Positions 42,537 to 60,617 of a stretch of DNA of 60,617 bases are shown in pieces. Position numbers and translations under genes: made by a program. Numbering within the stretch: the first letter of the stretch is position 1; each line of letters opens with the position of its first letter. Source of the DNA: Candidatus Omnitrophota bacterium (GTDB lineage: Bacteria > Omnitrophota > Gorgyraeia > Zapsychrales > Fredricksoniimonadaceae); contig JAGWOI010000014.1 of assembly GCA_028870995.1 (NCBI GenBank), positions 1-60,617 on the forward strand, written 5' to 3'. The notes under the pieces were generated by a model, which had not been told where the DNA came from, made no database searches, and worked only from the letters and a program-made list of their open reading frames with translations.

Positions 42537-45008
42537 TTAAAACCCGCGGCTGACGCTAAAATAAAATTTACCGCTTTTACTGGTCTGGCCAGGCTCGCTG
42601 TTTAAGGGGATGCCGTAATCCAGTTTGATGGGACCGATGGGCGTCTTGACCCGCAGGCCGACACCGGTGCCGGACTTGGTGCCTCCGGAACCATACTCCC
42701 TCACCTTGCTCCAAACATTACCCGTATCAAAGAACACGGCACCTTTGACGATGGAGATGATAGGCACGGTGTATTCAACGCTGCCCACCAATAAGGCATC
42801 ACCCCCAACGGCGTCATTCGTATTTGGATCAATAGGCCCGACGGAGCGCTCATCGTAACCGCGGATGGAATCCTGACCGCCGGCAAAATAACGTTCAAAG
42901 ATAGGGACATCGGGCGTATCCGGATAGGATTGGACAATGCCTGTCCTGGCGCTTATCTCCAGGACGGTGGTGACATCATGGATCGTAAAGGGGATATAGT
43001 ACGCCCCTCCGGTCTGCAGCCGCCAGAAATTCTTGTCACCACCCAGAGGGCCGCCGGCCAAGTCCGCGCTGTTAGTGATCGTCCAGCCGCGGGTCGGAGA
43101 CACCCGGCTGTCGCGGTAATCATTGGTAACGCTGACTCCCAGGGAGCTGACCAGGCTGCTGCCCTCCTGCTCAAGCAGGGCCTCGGACACGCCGGAATTC
43201 AAATTGCTGATCTCAATGTGTTCCAGGCGGTAGACGCCGGCAACGGAAAGGTTGTCATTGATGGCTTTGCCCAAACGCAGGTCACCGCCGAGGGTCTTTT
43301 GAGTATAGGCATAACCTGTCGTGTTATCGTTGAGATTTTCAGTAAGATAAGCATCGAAGCCTGCGGTCACGGGATGGTCAAAGAGCCAGGGTTCGGTGAA
43401 GCTCAACAGGAATTCGCGCTGCACGGAACCGATCTGGGCACGCAGGCGCAGGTCCTGGCCGCCGCCGGTGAACGTGGACCAATTGGAAATGTCGAAATTC
43501 TTCTGCTCCACTTCGACAAAGCCCACCAGCCTGTCAATGGTGCTGTAACCGCCGCCGAAAGAGAAGGTGCCGGTCTTGGCTTCCTTGACCTGCACGATCA
43601 GGTCCTTATAGTCATCGCGGTCGGTGTCCTCAATGTCATAACCCACATCCTCAAAATAACCCAGATCTTTAAGGCGCTGCTTGGAGACCTTGAGCTTCTC
43701 ACCATCAAAGCGGTCGCCGGGGTACATGCGCAATTCACGGCGGATGACGATATCACGGGTATGGGCATTGCCCTGGATCTTGATCTGGTTGATGTAGGTC
43801 AACATGCCTTCCTTAATATCGATCTTGATATCGACCCTGCCGGAGACCGGATTAAAGGAAGGCGATTCTTCCACCAAGGCCGTGATATAACCATGATTGA
43901 AGTAATCCTCCCGGATATTGGACAAGTCCTCTTCCATCTTCTCATGGCTGAAGACCTTGCCCGGCTTCAAATTCTTCAGGTGGCTCCTGATCTCGGCTTC
44001 GGAAAGGACGGAGTTCCCGGAAAAGGTGACATCGCCGACGTAATAACGGATCCCCTCTTGAATGGTGACATTGACGTTCACCCAACCTTTACGCAAAGGC
44101 TCCAATTGATAAGAGGCTTTGGCATCGAGGTAGCCGTTTTGCTCATAAAAAGACTGGATGGCGGTCATGTCCTGGTCCAGCTGTTCGGGCTTCAGGAGGC
44201 CTGAGTTAAAAAGCCAGGCCCACCGGGATTTCATGACCTTGATGATCTTCTTGTCGCGAAAAGCCACATTACCGTAAATATGGATCCGTTTGATCCGCAT
44301 TTTGTAACCTTCGCGGATGATAAAATGCAGGCCGGCTTTGTTGGTGGCTTCGTTGATGGAGGTCTGTGCATCGACCGTGGCCTGGGTCAGGCCTTTTTTC
44401 TTATATAAGTCCTGGATCATATTAATATCGTCCTTAAGGTCCTTATTATCCAGGAATTTATCTTTCTTGGTCTTCATCTTGTTCATTAAATAACGGGGAT
44501 TGTAATAACGTATCTTGGAAAAGCTTATTTCCTCAACGATCGGCTTTTCCTTAAGCTTGACGATCACTCTGTAGCCGCCGTCAAAATCCTCATGATCGAT
44601 CTGCACATCTGAAAAATGCCCGGTATTGTACAGGCGTTTCAAATCATCGCTGACCACGGCCTCCTGGTAGGGTTCCCCTACCCTGGTTTTAATCCTGGCC
44701 AGGACTTGGGCAATCCCGATGGATTTGTTGCCCTGGATATCGATGGCTTTGACAATTTTGGGGGCGGGGGCCTCTTCCGGCATGGCTGCAGCAGCCGCAG
44801 GCTGTTGCTCCATATTCATGCTGACATCGGCTGCCGGTTGTTGGGCATTGGTTGAAGTCGAATTGTCCTGTGCCGTTTGCTCGGCATTGAGGGCGGCATC
44901 GATCTTTTGCTGCCTGTTGCTATCTGATTGAGCGGAAACAACCTTTGCTCCTGATAGAACAAGACAAAGGCCGAAAAGGACGGTCAATAAAACTTTACAT
45001 TTGGGCAT
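42537..45008 (-). CDS. bamA: Outer membrane protein assembly factor
   Basis: Five POTRA domains, IRGY motif, TPIGPIKLDYG, C-terminal Phe. Confidence 0.97.
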   Translation of the reverse strand: MPKCKVLLTVLFGLCLVLSGAKVVSAQSDSNRQQKIDAALNAEQTAQDNSTSTNAQQPAADVSMNMEQQPAAAAAMPEEAPAPKIVKAIDIQGNKSIGIAQVLARIKTRVGEPYQEAVVSDDLKRLYNTGHFSDVQIDHEDFDGGYRVIVKLKEKPIVEEISFSKIRYYNPRYLMNKMKTKKDKFLDNKDLKDDINMIQDLYKKKGLTQATVDAQTSINEATNKAGLHFIIREGYKMRIKRIHIYGNVAFRDKKIIKVMKSRWAWLFNSGLLKPEQLDQDMTAIQSFYEQNGYLDAKASYQLEPLRKGWVNVNVTIQEGIRYYVGDVTFSGNSVLSEAEIRSHLKNLKPGKVFSHEKMEEDLSNIREDYFNHGYITALVEESPSFNPVSGRVDIKIDIKEGMLTYINQIKIQGNAHTRDIVIRRELRMYPGDRFDGEKLKVSKQRLKDLGYFEDVGYDIEDTDRDDYKDLIVQVKEAKTGTFSFGGGYSTIDRLVGFVEVEQKNFDISNWSTFTGGGQDLRLRAQIGSVQREFLLSFTEPWLFDHPVTAGFDAYLTENLNDNTTGYAYTQKTLGGDLRLGKAINDNLSVAGVYRLEHIEISNLNSGVSEALLEQEGSSLVSSLGVSVTNDYRDSRVSPTRGWTITNSADLAGGPLGGDKNFWRLQTGGAYYIPFTIHDVTTVLEISARTGIVQSYPDTPDVPIFERYFAGGQDSIRGYDERSVGPIDPNTNDAVGGDALLVGSVEYTVPIISIVKGAVFFDTGNVWSKVREYGSGGTKSGTGVGLRVKTPIGPIKLDYGIPLNSEPGQTSKSGKFYFSVSRGF

Positions 45009-54611: not shown

Positions 54612-54678
54612 ATTATAGCCTTCGATACGTCTAATGTAAAGTTATTTTATTGTCAAAGCTCCCAGGGTTAGCTATAAT
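54612..54678. promoter_or_regulatory. Back-to-back divergent sigma70 promoters (hisG and surA-like gene)
   Basis: Minus strand TTTACA (54635-40), N17, TATAAT (54612-17); plus strand TTGTCA (54650-55), N17, TATAAT (54673-78). Confidence 0.7.
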
Positions 54679-54715
54679 GGCACCTTTCAAAACCATTCAT
54701 AGGGGACACGTGTTT

Positions 54716-56137
54716 ATGCTCGAAGTTTTCCGCAAGAAAGGCGTCAACCAAACCATCCTTTGGGTCATCACCGTCATCGTCATTCTCTCTTTCGGCGTTT
54801 TCTGGACCGCCAACCGTTACGACACCGGCGTCAACAGTGTCGGTACGATGTACGGCCACAGCGTCAGCCGCCAGGATTTCGAACAGGCTTATGATGATGC
54901 CCGCGACCAGGACATCAGGACCTACGGTACCGATTTCTTCAAAAACAGCGCCAAATTCGACCTGGAAGCACAGGCCTGGGACCGTTTGATCCTCCTACGG
55001 GAAGCCCGCAAGCGCGGCATCAGGATAAGCGACGCCCAGGTGGTGGACGCGATCGCCAGCATGCCATTTTTCCAGACAGGCGGAAAATTTGACGAGGTAC
55101 GGTATGAAGAAACCGTGCAAAGCCCCGACGGTTTTGACCGGCCCACCCATGATTTCGAGGAAGGCGTCCGCCGGCAACTGATGATCAAGAAATTGGTCGA
55201 CCAGGTCGCCCCTGAAAAAACGTTCACTGATGCCGAATTACGCAACATTTACGATAAACGCAACGAAAAGATCACCCTGCAATATGTCTTGTTCAATGCG
55301 GCTGATTATGCCAAGAATGTTCCCGTTACTGACGAGGGCATCAACAAGTATTACCAACAGCACCATGAAGAGTTTGCCGCTCCCCCTTCCATCGTCCTTA
55401 ATTATGTGCAGACCAAGAATAAAGCCCTGGCCCAGGCTCTTTCCCGTCAGCTGGTGCCGGGAAGCGATTTTGCCGCCACGGCCAAAAAATTAAATTTAGA
55501 AGTTAAGACATCCGCGGCCTTTACTCAGGACCAGCCGATCCTTACCTTCGCTTATAATCCCGACAATATCCAAAAGTTCTTTGCCATGGAACCGGGGGAA
55601 TATTCTCCGGTTCTCGAAGCCCCGGACGGCTGGCAGATCGTGCAGCTCAAGGAAAAGCATCCCTCTTCCATCCCCGCTTTAAAGGATATTAAGGATAAAG
55701 TGAAAGAAGCGCTGCTCTTGGAAAAAGGCTTTAGCCTCGCTAAGCCCCAGGCGGACAAGGCGCTAGCCGCGCTGACCAAGGCATTAAAGACCAAAGATTT
55801 TAAGACAGCAGCGACGGACTTAGGCCTGAAGGTCCAGGAGACCCCCGCTTTCGGACGCAGGGAATTCATCGCCAGCACCGGACTGATAGCGGAATTCCAA
55901 CAGGAAGTCGACGAGCTTAATGCGGACAAAAGATTAAGCGGCGTCATCGCCACGTCACAGGGACCGGCCATCATCTATCTTGAAAAAGAACAAAAGCCTT
56001 CAAAGGCGGAGTTTGATTCGGATAAGGAGAACTTCAGGGAAATGCTGGGTGCCGAAGAGCGCAATCAGCTCCTGGTGGCCTTCATAACCCGGCTTCGTGC
56101 CGAAGCTGATGTGCACAGCCGGATCAAGACCCGGTAA
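54716..56137 (+). CDS. PpiD/SurA N-terminal-domain periplasmic chaperone
   Basis: N-terminal TM, LLREARKRGIRISD, FQTGGKFD..Y, parvulin-like segment (GEYSPV....GWQIV). Confidence 0.85.
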   Translation: MLEVFRKKGVNQTILWVITVIVILSFGVFWTANRYDTGVNSVGTMYGHSVSRQDFEQAYDDARDQDIRTYGTDFFKNSAKFDLEAQAWDRLILLREARKRGIRISDAQVVDAIASMPFFQTGGKFDEVRYEETVQSPDGFDRPTHDFEEGVRRQLMIKKLVDQVAPEKTFTDAELRNIYDKRNEKITLQYVLFNAADYAKNVPVTDEGINKYYQQHHEEFAAPPSIVLNYVQTKNKALAQALSRQLVPGSDFAATAKKLNLEVKTSAAFTQDQPILTFAYNPDNIQKFFAMEPGEYSPVLEAPDGWQIVQLKEKHPSSIPALKDIKDKVKEALLLEKGFSLAKPQADKALAALTKALKTKDFKTAATDLGLKVQETPAFGRREFIASTGLIAEFQQEVDELNADKRLSGVIATSQGPAIIYLEKEQKPSKAEFDSDKENFREMLGAEERNQLLVAFITRLRAEADVHSRIKTR

Positions 56138-59100
56138 CACCAAGAAACTTCCTCAAGTCAACCATAGGCTGGACATGGATAATGACCGGCATGAAACCCG
56201 GGGCATTGCCCAACCGGGCCAGCTGGGCGGGATCAAGATGAAATTTAATCGCCTGGCCGGAGTTATTCATGTGCAGATTCATTTGCCCGGCGGTCAGGTC
56301 GATACCGCCGGTCGTCTGGGCCTTGTCCGCATCCAAGATGCCTTGCAGCATGTTGCCCACCTCTGCCATCGACGCCGGACGCTGTGCCGACGCCCCCACC
56401 ATGCGATTGGTCAGGTCATCGATCTTCATGGAAACGTTCTGCGATACCGGGTTTTCGACATCATGCTGCGAAAGCACATCCTGCAAGGTCCTGCCCAGGC
56501 TGTACATGTCGGAAGAAACGCTGCTTAAATTTTCATACTTGTCCGAATAAGAAGGTGTCATGGCGGGGATCGGTTCACCGAACTTCCTGGCAATGCCAAA
56601 ATCAATCAACATAAATTCGCCCCGGGCATTAACAACGATGTTCGCCGGTTTAATATCATTATGCGCCCACCCCAATTGGTGAACCGCCTGCAGCGTTTGG
56701 ACAAGGCCCTGCACAATACCTATTTTTGCAGCCATAGGCATGGCAAACCAAAACTCCGGCGATTTATTAAGGCTTACCCCTCCCTCGATGCCTTTTAGTT
56801 TCATCCAAAAGGCGTTGTTCTCATCGACCCCTACCTCCAAAAGCTGCGGCACTCCCTGAATTCCCGACTCATTCATATGATAAATCAACCGCGCGGAATC
56901 CTTGGTGGTCTTATTAGAGGGGCCGCGATGCGCGACCTTATAAAAAATGCTTGTGTCGTCCGGGTCCTGGTAGACAGAGGCCGCCCCGCCTTCTCCCAGG
57001 ACTTCCATCCGGGCAAAATCCGGTGCCGATTCGCTGACAAGCCCGTCGAATTCGGGTATCTTATTCAATAAATTTAATGCCTGTTTTCTGGCCCCGGAAA
57101 CCGGTGGCAGTACGGAGACCATGGCACTGTTGGCGCTGTTGGCAATCTCGCTCAACCGCAAGGCGTCAGGATTATTTTGATCTACCAGTTCAGGCAGCGC
57201 AAACTTCAATAACGCCGCGGGGCTGCCCTGCTTTTCCAAGAAAGCCTGCTTTTGCATTATTAAACCGCCGAGATGCCCAACCTCAATGAAGAACGTGTAT
57301 TGGCCGTTAGTCCATCTGGCCTGATCTTGAGCGACGTAGCCGATGACATCCCTTCTATAAATATCCGCCATGGACTTGACGTCATGGGCCAACCGAGCCG
57401 ATTTAAATTGTCCGTCGTCCAAAGGATCCAACGCCGCGAGAACGGCCTTTTTCGCATTTTCCGGCTGGGTCCAATAATTATCTTCTATTTCCAAAGTGCG
57501 CAAAGCTTCCGGATTGGTTTGGTCCACCAGCCGGGGCAAAGCAAACCTTAACAGGGCTGCCGGGCTGCTCTCCTTATCTAAATAAGGTTTTTTGACCACA
57601 GAAGCCATCAGGCCAGAAAGGCCGCCTCTCTCCCTGAAAAATCCTATTTGACCGTCGGTAAACCTTTTGCTATCGGAGGCTTTGTAGGCGATAACATACT
57701 TTCTGTACAACTCGGCCATACGTTTAATATCCCCCGCCTTACGGGCCGCTTCAAATTTCCCCTTGTCTTCAACGCTTTCATCGCCAATACTATCCAGCAC
57801 AGCCAGGATATAATTCTTCGCGGTGATTTCATTGTCCCAAAAACCCCGGGGAAAGGTCACATGGTCTCTTCGCTTGGCCATGTACCACCTCTTAGCGTCC
57901 GCATAAGAAAAACCGTCCTTCACTGCTTTGATTTCAGAAGGGCTGCTGCGCATGGCCGGGTCTTGTGAAACACTGTAATCAATTTCCAGCGTAATGGCCG
58001 TGTTGTTTTCAATGGAAACGCTGGTACCGTTGTTGGTAAACTTCAGCCCTCCCTCAAACCGCGCGGACTTATTGGCATCAACCACCCTGCGTACGGTGCC
58101 TTCCCAGTCCGCCATAAATAACTCCCCGTTAGTGAAGCCAAGGGCCAATTCGCTGCCGCTTACACGGACCAAGGCCTTGCCGCGCCACCCGGCCTCAAAG
58201 GTCATGGTGCTTCCAGGAGCCAAGAATCTTGTTTTGGGCAGGATCCCCTGGTCCTCTCCGGTGGCCTTCTGCAAATCCTCATCGGCATCAGGAGTGGACA
58301 GGCGTTCGAAAAAAGGGTTTCTTGAAGAGAAATACTGTTTATACCTGCCCAGGTCCTGCGCTTTCAAGAACTCTCTGACTTCAGGATAGGTATCAAATTC
58401 GTTTAAGATGCCCACCAAATTCCAATACAACTCCGAGCCGTTGATTTTATCGAGCGGTGATCCGCTGCCTTTCATCAATTGCATTAAGTTAGCTCTATTG
58501 TGGTCTATGACCAGCACCCTCCTTAAAGAATTGAGCATATACCCCTGGTATTCCATACCTCTCCTGTCTTGGAAGGCGTTGAAATACAGGATCAGTTTGT
58601 TCAGATAACTTCGCAAGGCCGGCACGCTCTGATCAAGGACAACTTCATTCTCAGCATCGATCATATCTACGAATAACGGCTTTATGTCCACAGCAGGCGT
58701 CGTTCGTATTTCTTCCCTGAATAATCCGATATGGATATCCCAGGCCTTCCACGGAAAAACCAAGGGTTTGGAAACAAGCAAGCGCAGATCCTGGTCGTCC
58801 GATTTGAGGATGGCCTTAAGAAAGGCATATACTTCATTGGCGTTGGCGTCTTTAACCAGCTGGAGAACATCTTTACTTGTGATGCTGACGGTATTGGTCT
58901 CGCTGACACCTTCAATCGTTTTTAAAATCAATTCATTGAGAATTTTGTATTTAGCATATTGTTCAGGATGGTGTTTTTGAAAAGCCGCGTCATCTACACT
59001 GACCATCGCCTGGTTAACCGGTATCGCCTGCTTGATGCCGGCCAGGGCACTGTTGAGCGCCACCTTGCTTTCATCCGGCAATAAATACCAGACCAGGTCA

Positions 59101-60617
59101 TGCCGTAACATGACCCCAGGGGCAAACATCGATCTTCCCTTAATCTCCTCCTTAAAATAGACTTTATCCCAATTGATCTGTTTAATATCTTTAGCGATGT
59201 CCTCAACCCCCTTGTAATTCTCGGCGAACCTTACAAGCAGCGGTTTTGGGGGAATGGCCCCGTGGTTCTGCGCAAGCCGAAGCGCACGATCGGTGACCTG
59301 GGCATCCCTATCATGAAGGGTCTGTTTCATGTGGTCGGTCACAGCCACCTTGTTGAACCAATCCAGGTCCTGGTTGGAAGGTATATTGACGAGGGGGCCT
59401 GGCAGGGCCGGCTGGCTTATTTGACGCCGCCGTTTGGCCCAGGCCATGAGCAGCAGCCGCATTAAAGAAGTGCGGGTGGATAATTGTTCATACGATTGGC
59501 GGTCCATGGCCACGACTGTTTTCAAAAAATGTTCGGGATCTTTGAAGTCTACCTTATCGTTCTTAAGCGCGCGAAAAAGCTGGCGGGCCGTGGCAGAAAT
59601 ATCATCTCCATTAAGCGCGTAAAGTTGACTAAGAATATATTGCCCTACAAAATGATTAAACCCGTAATGCGCATCTTTTACAGCCTTTAACAAAAGCGTT
59701 CTGATCTGGCCGCTGCCGGTATTCAAATGTTCTTTGATCATCTGGGCGCGGACGTAGTCCATGAATGCGTTTAAAAATTCGGTAAAGTCACTGTCCTTTG
59801 AATACCCCCTGGGTACATTCTCCCAATTCCACTGGGGATTGTCCTTAATGAATCCTATCAGCAGTTTTCCTATCGCAGCACCCTGCTCCAAGCCTGCCGT
59901 ATTAAAGGACTCCTTTGACAAACGGCCCACCAAGGTGCTGACAAGGGTGTCATAGGCTTCAGCAACCCCATTATGAGGCGCTTGCTGGCGCAAGGCAAAA
60001 TGAATGGCATGACCTACCTCGGAACCCAAACCATGAATGCCGTCATCCACCACCCAATCAATCGTGATTTTATCCTTATACATCCCGTTCGTTGTTGAAG
60101 GATAGGTCCCTTTGGATAACCGCAGGTCAATCTTGCGCATGACTTCGTCGGCCAATTGCGGCTGCCCCATCCGGGAAAGGGCCATGGTCACCACCTCGCG
60201 CAGCAAATCCATGGCCCTGGCATGCTGGGGCGTGTCTTTTTGACGCTGATAGGCCTCCTCCTGCCGGTTCATGAAATTTTCGTAAACGGTATTGGCGGCA
60301 GAATTTTCGCCTAGCATGGCGGGGTTGGAGGCGGTTATGTCGACTAAAACGTCATATGAAGGTCCGGCTTCCTGCTGTTGGTAGCTTTTCAACCAGGTTT
60401 TAACGGTCTGTAAAATACCGCCCTGCATGGCCATGTTGGTCTTACCGATCATGGCAAAATTGACCCCCCCTGAAAAATACTTCCTGGGGATCATCTGCTG
60501 GGTCAGCGGGTCCTGTTCTTCTTTGATGTAGTTGTATACCCCCTTCTTGAAGGCCTGTAAGTACCGTTGGTATATCTTCTGCTTTTCCTGAGGGTCCCGG
60601 ATACTGATCCCCGCCAC
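56124..60617 (-). CDS. Giant multidomain protein (5' end outside window) with Ser/Thr kinase domain and GGIDL C-terminal domain
   Basis: 1497-codon open frame reaching the window edge. Kinase motifs LGEGGAASVY, HNDIKPANI, DFG, DMYSLG; internal ~115-aa duplication; recurring [N/D]xAM linkers. Confidence 0.9.
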   Translation of the reverse strand: MAGISIRDPQEKQKIYQRYLQAFKKGVYNYIKEEQDPLTQQMIPRKYFSGGVNFAMIGKTNMAMQGGILQTVKTWLKSYQQQEAGPSYDVLVDITASNPAMLGENSAANTVYENFMNRQEEAYQRQKDTPQHARAMDLLREVVTMALSRMGQPQLADEVMRKIDLRLSKGTYPSTTNGMYKDKITIDWVVDDGIHGLGSEVGHAIHFALRQQAPHNGVAEAYDTLVSTLVGRLSKESFNTAGLEQGAAIGKLLIGFIKDNPQWNWENVPRGYSKDSDFTEFLNAFMDYVRAQMIKEHLNTGSGQIRTLLLKAVKDAHYGFNHFVGQYILSQLYALNGDDISATARQLFRALKNDKVDFKDPEHFLKTVVAMDRQSYEQLSTRTSLMRLLLMAWAKRRRQISQPALPGPLVNIPSNQDLDWFNKVAVTDHMKQTLHDRDAQVTDRALRLAQNHGAIPPKPLLVRFAENYKGVEDIAKDIKQINWDKVYFKEEIKGRSMFAPGVMLRHDLVWYLLPDESKVALNSALAGIKQAIPVNQAMVSVDDAAFQKHHPEQYAKYKILNELILKTIEGVSETNTVSITSKDVLQLVKDANANEVYAFLKAILKSDDQDLRLLVSKPLVFPWKAWDIHIGLFREEIRTTPAVDIKPLFVDMIDAENEVVLDQSVPALRSYLNKLILYFNAFQDRRGMEYQGYMLNSLRRVLVIDHNRANLMQLMKGSGSPLDKINGSELYWNLVGILNEFDTYPEVREFLKAQDLGRYKQYFSSRNPFFERLSTPDADEDLQKATGEDQGILPKTRFLAPGSTMTFEAGWRGKALVRVSGSELALGFTNGELFMADWEGTVRRVVDANKSARFEGGLKFTNNGTSVSIENNTAITLEIDYSVSQDPAMRSSPSEIKAVKDGFSYADAKRWYMAKRRDHVTFPRGFWDNEITAKNYILAVLDSIGDESVEDKGKFEAARKAGDIKRMAELYRKYVIAYKASDSKRFTDGQIGFFRERGGLSGLMASVVKKPYLDKESSPAALLRFALPRLVDQTNPEALRTLEIEDNYWTQPENAKKAVLAALDPLDDGQFKSARLAHDVKSMADIYRRDVIGYVAQDQARWTNGQYTFFIEVGHLGGLIMQKQAFLEKQGSPAALLKFALPELVDQNNPDALRLSEIANSANSAMVSVLPPVSGARKQALNLLNKIPEFDGLVSESAPDFARMEVLGEGGAASVYQDPDDTSIFYKVAHRGPSNKTTKDSARLIYHMNESGIQGVPQLLEVGVDENNAFWMKLKGIEGGVSLNKSPEFWFAMPMAAKIGIVQGLVQTLQAVHQLGWAHNDIKPANIVVNARGEFMLIDFGIARKFGEPIPAMTPSYSDKYENLSSVSSDMYSLGRTLQDVLSQHDVENPVSQNVSMKIDDLTNRMVGASAQRPASMAEVGNMLQGILDADKAQTTGGIDLTAGQMNLHMNNSGQAIKFHLDPAQLARLGNAPGFMPVIIHVQPMVDLRKFLGVTGS

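Follow-up and report, generated by a model that had tools for sequence, protein, structure and literature searches.

The window, which is the whole 60,617-nucleotide stretch analysed and corresponds to contig JAGWOI010000014.1 of a Candidatus Omnitrophota bacterium (assembly GCA_028870995.1), ends in a large open reading frame on the minus strand which is truncated at its 5' end and runs off both window and contig (Table 1). Its product closes with ...DKAQTT GGIDLTAGQMNLHMNNSGQAIKFHLDPAQLARLGNAPGFMPVIIHVQPMVDLRKFLGV, followed by TGS and a TGA stop codon. The original prediction had read the C-terminal GGIDL peptide and its placement at 56124-56327 exactly, to which are added here the minus strand and the final TGS, omitted at the time. 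The tail comprises, in order, the GGIDL core, three strand-like segments, a short helix capped by DPAQ, a hydrophobic GFMPVIIHVQP segment, DLRKFLG and the VTGS end. Ahead of it lies a Ser/Thr kinase domain, which scores above the PF00069 cut-off and contains HNDIKPANIV and DFG motifs. Four [DN]-x-A-M motifs are distributed along the frame, with a fifth, degenerate one shortly before the tail, at which site the paralogs read DKAM, DQAM, DRAM or NPAM. At the N-terminal side only the end of a conserved domain, the head, is visible, as the contig does not reach its remainder or the signal peptide; frames C27 and C17, likewise at contig ends, begin with the same 51 head residues. The tail, the head end, the four junctions with their degenerate fifth and the absence of any Cys in 1497 residues place this protein in the family described below, the members of which are referred to as carriers.

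Table 1. Features of the carrier gene and its convergent neighbour in the window.
Feature	Position	Strand	Basis and remarks
Carrier open reading frame	56124-60617	-	translation; 5'-truncated, runs off window and contig end; 1497 aa visible
TGA stop of carrier gene	56124-56126	-	translation
Tail proper, aa 1437-1497 of visible frame	56127..56309	-	translation; tail profile aa 1435-1495, E 2e-28
Last junction motif, degenerate D-K-A-Q (vs D-x-A-M)	56316..56327	-	translation; two residues upstream of GGIDL
Protein kinase domain, aa 1202-1401, last cargo module	56415..57014	-	PF00069, 53.8 bits (cut-off 31.7), E 2.3e-14
Junction motif N-S-A-M, aa 1163-1166	57120..57131	-	motif scan
Junction motif D-P-A-M, aa 886-889	57951..57962	-	motif scan
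Junction motif N-Q-A-M, aa 535-538	59004..59015	-	motif scan
Junction motif N-P-A-M, aa 98-101, first after head	60315..60326	-	motif scan
Last 51 head residues, end ...PRKYFSGG	60465..60617	-	head profile positions 253-303, E 7e-21
PpiD/SurA-like chaperone gene, convergent	54650..56137	+	SurA_N_3 E 3e-25; Rotamase_2 E 1.9e-22

The convergent chaperone gene overlaps the carrier gene by 14 nt (56124-56137). This overlap, pointed out earlier, is real but peculiar to the window copy, with no recurrent neighbour at the 17 carriers of the genome and no gene within 5 kb of them shared by more than three loci. The PpiD/SurA-like gene is a mere neighbour, and nothing ties it to the tail system.

The 2.3-Mb genome encodes 17 large tail-bearing proteins. 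A tail profile recovers 15 large open frames, 14 of them at E 2e-28 to 5e-16 and the last at 1.4e-5; the remaining two carriers were recognised by eye. In a library of 1.84 billion proteins, 5751 cluster representatives match the same profile, 2069 of them at E<=1e-10, a recurrence far above chance. The tail had been proposed as a lineage-specific module common to a family of large proteins, and it is indeed found on many which are otherwise unlike one another. Its position is strictly terminal. The distance to the stop is 0-14 residues in 14/14 tblastn matches of the own genome, with three more carriers also ending in the tail (17/17 overall), in all 30 fetched loci the frame closes 0-37 residues after the tail, and the distance is 0-21 residues (median 7) in the best 150 of the 5751 representatives, where it is terminal in every case and never occurs twice in one protein. 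Within this conserved module of ca. 60 aa, G, G and I are invariant across the alignments, while D, two G, two P and I are present in at least 90% of rows. In distant families GGID(L/F) and a short strand alone persist, at the C-terminus of head-bearing frames. Tails were identified in 11 of the 201 genomes in a phylum-wide sample, including 8 of the 9 other genomes of the order; elsewhere in the class, only one f17 and one f25 genome in the sample have one. Truncated-tail proteins also exist.

The carriers have two constant caps, of which the tail is one. The family layout consists of a signal peptide, a head of ca. 305 aa, a varying number (one to many) of unrelated cargo modules with [DN]-x-A-M between them, and the tail of ca. 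60 aa. All 12 complete carriers begin with a basic-hydrophobic-AxA segment resembling a signal peptide, as judged by eye, followed by the head. In the loci fetched from other genomes such a segment precedes 26 of 27 heads, the exception (L070) having its frame start too near the head for the segment to show. Mature carriers contain 13 Cys in 27,841 residues (0.047%), against 0.9-1.2% in the other open frames of the genome, and the best 150 of the 5751 tail representatives contain 0.12%. Such depletion is typical for proteins that cross the outer membrane unfolded. The original prediction envisaged export or anchoring as the role of the tail, and this is plausible, given N-termini that resemble signal peptides, a Cys content close to nil and the strict terminal position.

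The cargo itself is diverse. Pfam searches, which covered the carriers apart from one of 5041 aa, identified Pkinase, Response_reg, HEAT, DUF218, Metallophos, UDPGP and Glyco_transf_5, with most modules belonging to no family. The kinase is therefore one cargo among many and the tail is not an integral part of a kinase family, nor is it confined to a single protein, the two outcomes that would have spoken against a shared tag. Two carriers hold membrane-embedded or outer-membrane-type modules, from which it follows that not every carrier is a fully secreted passenger.

The modules are joined by the [DN]xAM motif, which sits between domains; 7 of 7 Pfam domains lie between consecutive copies. 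It occurs 2.15 times per 1000 aa in carriers compared with 0.16 in other open frames (13-fold enriched), and 3.3 times in the best 150 representatives. A signal at the DNA level, such as an internal start or a recombination site, was considered and rejected, as conservation is confined to the four codons with only a preference for GCC; [DN]xAM is a protein-level motif. Its enrichment, inter-domain position and protein-level nature would suit cleavage sites in a polyprotein, with the tail as the precursor's terminal pro-peptide, intramolecular chaperone or enzyme-presenting element, itself cut at D-P-A-(M/Q). Consistent with this, D-x-A-(M/Q) recurs 15-40 residues past GGI in 113 of the 150 best representative tails (of 5751) and in 6 of 16 own tails, and a language-model search of the ESM Atlas gave weak leads from the tail to subtilisin/CspB prodomains (score 0.85, under the 0.9 bar). 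Against processing, the family has no associated protease, the genome's only C39 peptidase match being located in an unrelated frame of 23,142 aa, and D-P-A-Q starts a helix in the tail model, so the motif may instead simply N-cap helices where modules begin. Processing of this kind is considered quite improbable.

Structure models hint at a tail that may not be self-sufficient. Modelled alone with AF2, the tail reaches pLDDT 69 and pTM 0.22 with two short helices, its confidence being best over the last 20 residues, although the alignment was shallow (64 rows) and this may alone explain the poor model. The lack of a confident fold on its own suggests that the tail may need a partner to fold. 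No beta-sandwich appears in this model, the low confidence of which is too weak a basis to judge an Ig-like fold of ca. 70-100 aa as in the T9SS domain discussed below. The head is modelled better (pLDDT 80, pTM 0.72), as mixed hairpins and long helices rather than a beta-helix, and ends in a beta-hairpin adjoining ...KYFSGG. Foldseek against the PDB gave no match to the head model at E<=0.001, and neither did a PDB sequence profile search with the head; a wide VIA-align comparison returned a best Z of 4.0 and listed no Tiki, TraB or erythromycin-esterase family. The heads match no Pfam family. For the tail, the profile search of PDB sequences returned nothing but a chance-level DnaK row (E 0.91).

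A partner for the tail could be the head itself. The tail might bind a head within one chain, thereby closing around the cargo, or between chains, forming chains or a coat in a manner resembling donor-strand complementation in chaperone-usher pili; the caps would then be a chassis for assembly and not a signal for secretion. Each of the 12 complete carriers has a single head and a single tail, and all 11 tail-bearing genomes also have the head. The tail, without a confident fold of its own, is rich in strand-like alternating patterns, and the head model has its terminal hairpin. Furthermore, a cargo-less protein of 438 aa, P0256, consists of signal peptide, head, a 14-residue spacer and tail, and matches only unnamed Omnitrophota clusters in the ESM Atlas. 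The carriers' own genome, however, has no such cargo-less subunit, its smallest complete carrier frame measuring 1150 aa (carriers here are mostly of 1-2 kaa). The head also occurs in more of the 201 genomes (26) than does a tail that can be recognised (11), head-only proteins occur even on long contigs, and a profile-profile comparison finds tail and head unrelated, with only an 11-column GG match at a probability of 0.5%. Docking between the caps is viewed as rather unlikely. P0256 also led to rejection of the idea that the post-head connector duplicates the first half of the tail, as this protein contains both.

Comparison with known C-terminal signals bears out the earlier reading that the tail corresponds to none of LPXTG, PEP-CTERM, the CTD of type IX secretion (T9SS), autotransporters or RTX, based on Pfam, NCBIfam and a hydropathy scan. 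Searched as a 91-aa piece, the C-terminus yields no family at E<=1 from either Pfam or NCBIfam. A close organisational resemblance is to the T9SS CTD of Bacteroidota (Por_Secre_tail), in which a Sec signal peptide is combined with a non-catalytic, conserved domain of ca. 60-90 aa that is always last, is common to many unrelated, often large cargo proteins of one lineage and reaches dozens of copies per genome. The tail nevertheless shows no sequence relation to this domain, and T9SS cargo has neither the head of ca. 305 aa nor the [DN]xAM junctions of the carriers. Searches with PF14349 (SprA/Sov) and TIGR04183 gave zero matches in the own genome, a result to be read alongside control genomes that were also silent. 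Sortase, exosortase and rhombosortase signals (LPXTG, PEP-CTERM, GlyGly-CTERM) consist of a short motif, then a transmembrane helix of hydrophobic residues and basic residues at the very C-terminus. In the window protein, tail included, a Kyte-Doolittle scan over 19 residues found no segment at or above 1.6, and NCBIfam gave no match. Autotransporters (T5aSS) end in a beta-barrel of ca. 250-300 aa, in contrast to the carriers' conserved end of ca. 60 aa, and no autotransporter family was matched by Pfam in any carrier scanned.

In size and position the tail would also fit an uncleaved C-terminal signal of ca. 60 residues for an ABC transporter, adaptor and TolC, of the kind known from RTX proteins and giant adhesins, and the carriers are suitably large and Cys-poor. 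Yet each of the 12 complete carriers shows, by eye, a Sec-type N-terminus, which type I substrates by definition lack. RTX substrates have glycine-rich nonapeptide repeats ahead of their C-terminal signal, but no RTX repeat family was matched in carriers by Pfam, and no ABC exporter adjoins the 17 carriers. Type I signals are normally not conserved to the level of the tail. A type I-like route appears very improbable.

Several large-protein systems share other parts of the layout. TpsA exoproteins of two-partner secretion likewise have a signal peptide, a conserved N-terminal domain of ca. 300 aa and long variable cargo, and are large and Cys-poor; they differ in that the carriers' head has no TPS (Haemagg_act) match and in having no constant C-terminal cap. 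TpsB was rejected as a dedicated transporter, since ShlB/TpsB is present in 102 of the 201 phylum genomes irrespective of head or tail, and was not found in G129, G079, G091 or G167, four genomes with 2 to at least 30 tails, of which G129 holds at least 30. MARTX effector polyproteins offer an analogy, with interchangeable modules between constant ends and defined junctions; they rely on type I secretion, glycine-rich repeats and a cysteine protease domain of their own, none of which was found in carriers. Cellulosomal dockerins and donor-strand subunits are short terminal plug-in modules, in keeping with the tail's lack of a confident autonomous fold, although the tail has neither dockerin nor pilin matches in Pfam or NCBIfam, nor any known cohesin-like partner. 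Within the phylum itself, giant proteins ("Archaeovorins", dockerin-type) have N-terminal C39/S8 peptidase domains, transmembrane anchors and SecA-like domains, according to the part of the preprint consulted (West-Roberts et al., 2023, 10.1101/2023.11.21.568195). As described in that part, they too are large exported multi-enzyme proteins of unknown function with proposed processing into pieces; it describes no head, junction motif or GGIDL tail (West-Roberts et al., 2023). The carriers here are mostly smaller than such giants.

The favoured explanation, to which nearly an even chance is given, is that the GGIDL segment serves as the constant end-cap, at the C-terminus, of a Sec-exported modular family specific to Omnitrophota, with a partner-dependent docking or sorting role. 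After Sec export the tail would act as a non-catalytic element, its strand-like segments and invariant GGID(L/F) core binding a shared envelope component. Such binding would send the protein as a whole into a single, shared post-Sec step, which may be retention at the cell surface or outer-membrane passage in an unfolded, disulfide-free state; for the window protein, the cargo so delivered would end in the Ser/Thr kinase. The strict terminal position, export-like N-termini, low Cys content, cargo diversity, missing autonomous fold, GGID(L/F) core and P0256 all argue for an end-cap. On the other side, neither a receptor nor a translocon or processing enzyme could be identified, and head-only and truncated-tail proteins exist. 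Much of the cargo (kinase, receiver, UDP-glucose pyrophosphorylase, starch synthase) is moreover typically cytoplasmic and nucleotide-dependent, an unexpected trait in proteins of the periplasm or cell surface, unless their site of action is the interior of another cell. Head, [DN]xAM and tail could together define a new delivery or display pathway in Omnitrophota, ultra-small bacteria that may live as predators or parasites. Disulfide-free, Sec-exported polyproteins of kinases, receivers and sugar-nucleotide enzymes, all of cytoplasmic type, would be recognised through both caps, moved to the surface or into a partner cell and cut at the junction motif into separate effectors; this extension is speculative and, on balance, unlikely.

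Omnitrophota are widespread, uncultured and very small bacteria, many large proteins of which are almost wholly unexplained. Here a constant tail and head mark thousands of them (5751 representatives), with dozens per genome in one order. Two profiles suffice to list the repertoire of a genome and the junction motif predicts module boundaries, which aids localisation experiments. If the caps turn out to be sorting signals, a new export or display route would be implied; if the two bind each other, so would a new mode of constructing surface assemblies that carry enzymes. The family is apparently undescribed, no description having been found in literature on Omnitrophota secretion, polyproteins, Cys and signal peptides, or on GGIDL. 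Head, junction motif and tail are absent from the main-text portions consulted of 10.64898/2026.06.07.730766, 10.1101/2023.11.21.568195, PMC10066038, PMC8542988 and PMC11285876. Five carrier genes of the genome, that of the window included, are broken inside the head, and the conservation of this domain accounts for assemblies of such genomes breaking in carrier genes.

The GGIDL-led segment of about 60 residues that ends the kinase-bearing protein of the window (the tail) is the constant cap at the C-terminus of a large protein family specific to Omnitrophota, with a fixed N-terminal region of about 305 residues (the head) and cargo modules joined by a [DN]-x-A-M motif. Its members bear N-terminal export-type segments, judged by eye, and almost no cysteine. 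Translation of the minus strand gives the last 67 residues of the window protein as DKAQTT-GGIDLTAGQMNLHMNNSGQAIKFHLDPAQLARLGNAPGFMPVIIHVQPMVDLRKFLGVTGS, followed by TGA, reproducing the peptide of the original prediction with three end residues omitted there; the 14-nt overlap with a convergent PpiD/SurA-like gene was likewise recovered. The last 91 residues match no family at E ≤ 1 in Pfam and NCBIfam. Neighbouring genes are housekeeping ones (hisG, a TPR protein, a GHMP kinase, a GlmU-like gene and PRPP synthetase). Two envelope-biogenesis genes also lie in the window, the PpiD/SurA-like gene and, 13 kb from the tail-bearing gene, an 837-aa frame with an Omp85/BamA-family match.

Coordinates of features in the window and on other contigs (C) of its genome, G000
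Feature	Position	Strand	Basis
Carrier ORF, single open frame reaching past contig end	56124-60617	-	translation
TGA stop of carrier ORF	56124-56126	-	translation
Pkinase domain, directly upstream of tail	aa 1202-1401 of carrier ORF	-	Pfam, 53.8 bits
DPAM-to-NSAM module	57131-57962 (aa ~889-1163)	-	
First 51 residues of carrier ORF	60465-60617	-	
PpiD/SurA-like convergent gene	54650-56137	+	SurA_N_3 and Rotamase_2 matches
Omp85/BamA-family match	42540-43472	-	E 8e-73
Carrier frames with a second signal-peptide-like or transmembrane segment after first junction	C14:62914-78036, C58:1-3807, C32:80439-84107, C15:14404-17985		

Within the genome (2.34 Mb, 59 contigs, 51% G+C), tblastn with the tail matched 14 open frames of 669–5041 aa, the match lying 0–14 residues from the stop in all 14. 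A tail profile returned the same frames (E 2e-28 to 5e-16) plus one on C55 (E 1.4e-5), with no copies found at internal or N-terminal sites. Diverged tails recognised by eye on C41 (NPAM..PGGIKF...DLADFIR) and in the 2915-aa frame C17:20495-29239 (DHAQ...PGGIDLSQ..., degenerate, with a head at E 1e-124) bring the tail-bearing large proteins, or carriers, to 17. Against a library of 1.84 billion protein cluster representatives, the profile matched 5751 proteins at E ≤ 0.001 and 2069 at E ≤ 1e-10; each of the best 150 of the 5751 has a single copy, whose match stops 0–21 residues (median 7) short of the C-terminus. Fetched loci supplied 30 matches, of which 28 come from other genomes and 2 are this genome's own, fetched again; all lie 0–37 residues before the frame end. 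The tail is therefore terminal in all three sets, a position that the original prediction had proposed checking when it described an export or anchoring tag. Past the TAA of the carrier on C29, the same phase continues into a ComEA-like helix-hairpin-helix sequence of about 124 aa (C29:13517-13900), most likely just a following gene that shares the frame. The function that we rank first, tentatively and at slightly less than even chances, is that the tail would serve as a partner-dependent sorting or anchoring element after Sec export.

All 12 complete carriers open with a basic-hydrophobic-AxA segment resembling a signal peptide (judged by eye), followed by the head, whose paralogs are 50–74% identical (LPxPGxMVxLSP...LIKYFLAxLTIPEKDLWVNLSPYEK...NTFNKVW...PRKYFSGG). 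As a conserved repeat, the head interrupts assembly of the genome. Five tail-bearing frames begin at contig ends, four of them, the window ORF included, within the head, and five head fragments lie at 3' contig ends (C11, C41, C14, C44, C3). Frames C27:93337-95343 and C17:1-4092 start with exactly the 51 residues, the end of the head, that open the window ORF; assembly thus breaks in the head, and a signal peptide and complete head almost certainly precede the visible part of the window protein, beyond the contig end. Among the matches listed, 52 tail-bearing library representatives have at least 700 aa; 33 carry a full head, 8 a partial one and 11 none, the last probably being 5' fragments. 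Cargo may be absent altogether, as in P0256 (438 aa, from a long contig), a database protein made of signal peptide, head, 14-residue spacer and tail, for which the ESM Atlas returned nothing but unnamed Omnitrophota clusters. Others on long contigs are head-only (P0162, P0155 and P0242, 347–353 aa), P0231 ends in a truncated tail (...STGIDLNAK), and distant head-bearing families keep no more of the tail than a GGID(L/F) core close to the C-terminus, e.g. ...GGIDLNRIRLKVIFYEE-stop and ...GGIDLRNMRINLR-stop. Second in rank, and rather unlikely, is docking of the tail on the head of its own or another chain.

In an even sample of 201 Omnitrophota genomes the head occurs in 26, including all 11 with the tail. 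These 11 are the present genome, the three other members of its family sampled (from 14 to at least 30 copies per genome), five of six in the order's other families and two more in the class; the tail was not found in the remaining 190, among them 63 of the largest family. Many of the head's database relatives carry the label hypothetical protein of Candidatus Omnitrophica or Omnitrophota. Database and literature searches turned up neither a curated family nor a solved structure or paper that describes tail, head or junction motif.

The head is modelled (38 sequences; pLDDT 80, pTM 0.72) as three beta-hairpins plus long helices; no PDB relatives were found by Foldseek at E ≤ 0.001 or by sequence profile, and the best VIA-align Z was 4.0; a Tiki/TraB fold was not recovered for it. 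The tail model (pLDDT 69, pTM 0.22) has two short helices, one begun by a D-P-A-(M/Q) motif, and exceeds 80 only over the final ~20 residues; given these weak scores, the tail is not predicted as an autonomous domain, on a shallow alignment of 64 sequences.

Carrier modules are set apart by [DN]-x-A-M, mostly with x-(S/A/T) after it. Carriers contain 61 copies of the motif in 28,395 residues (2.15 per 1000), a 13-fold enrichment over the 0.16 per 1000 of the genome's other 1472 ORFs of at least 250 aa, and its frequency reaches 3.3 per 1000 in the best 150 of the 5751 representatives. Its conservation is at protein level: past its four codons the nucleotides show none. All seven Pfam domains of the carriers (Pkinase, Response_reg, HEAT_2, DUF218, Metallophos, UDPGP and Glyco_transf_5) fall wholly between consecutive junctions. 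The tail does not belong to the kinase; its being part of a kinase family would have counted against the original prediction. Junctions of the window protein read NPAM, NQAM, DPAM and NSAM, with a degenerate DKAQ two residues upstream of GGIDL. Its DPAM-to-NSAM module, lacking a Pfam match, looks internally duplicated, two units of about 135 aa both ending in ...LL(R/K)FALP(R/E)LVDQxNP(E/D)ALR. D-P-A-(M/Q) recurs mid-tail in 113 of the best 150 of the 5751 representatives and in 6 of 16 own copies; a part for the tail in junction-directed processing ranks third and seems improbable.

Mature carriers hold 13 Cys in 27,841 residues (0.047%; other ORFs of the genome, 0.9–1.2%), the window protein none. 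What most troubles any export model is cargo of a cytoplasmic type (kinase, receiver, sugar-nucleotide enzymes). Speculatively, such cargo would be most sensible if carriers act in another cell, and an equally speculative connection may be drawn to the predatory or parasitic lifestyles proposed for parts of Omnitrophota (PMC10066038; 10.1101/2023.11.21.568195).

No gene recurs beside the 17 carriers. The genome has two ShlB/TpsB genes; ShlB is present in 102 of the 201 genomes irrespective of head or tail and was not found in G129, an Omnitrophota genome with at least 30 tails, so a two-partner-secretion mechanism is not supported. An unrelated 23,142-aa ORF (C42:84266-153691) has the genome's only C39 peptidase match, near its N-terminus. 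T9SS searches gave no match in this genome, but none in the control genomes either. By its logic the architecture recalls known C-terminal sorting domains, yet it failed every membership test that could be run; a T1SS-like signal, ranked fourth, is highly improbable.

In several carriers a second signal-peptide-like or transmembrane segment stands right behind the first junction (e.g. AM-LGTTTRRWAAALVGLALLAGANTVYA), so carriers may vary in the topology of the cargo that lies downstream. Two giant ORFs, likewise cysteine-poor, bear neither head nor tail, the C42 frame (0.18% Cys, 13 [DN]xAM) and C14:1-35085 (11,695 aa, 0.02% Cys, 5 [DN]xAM).
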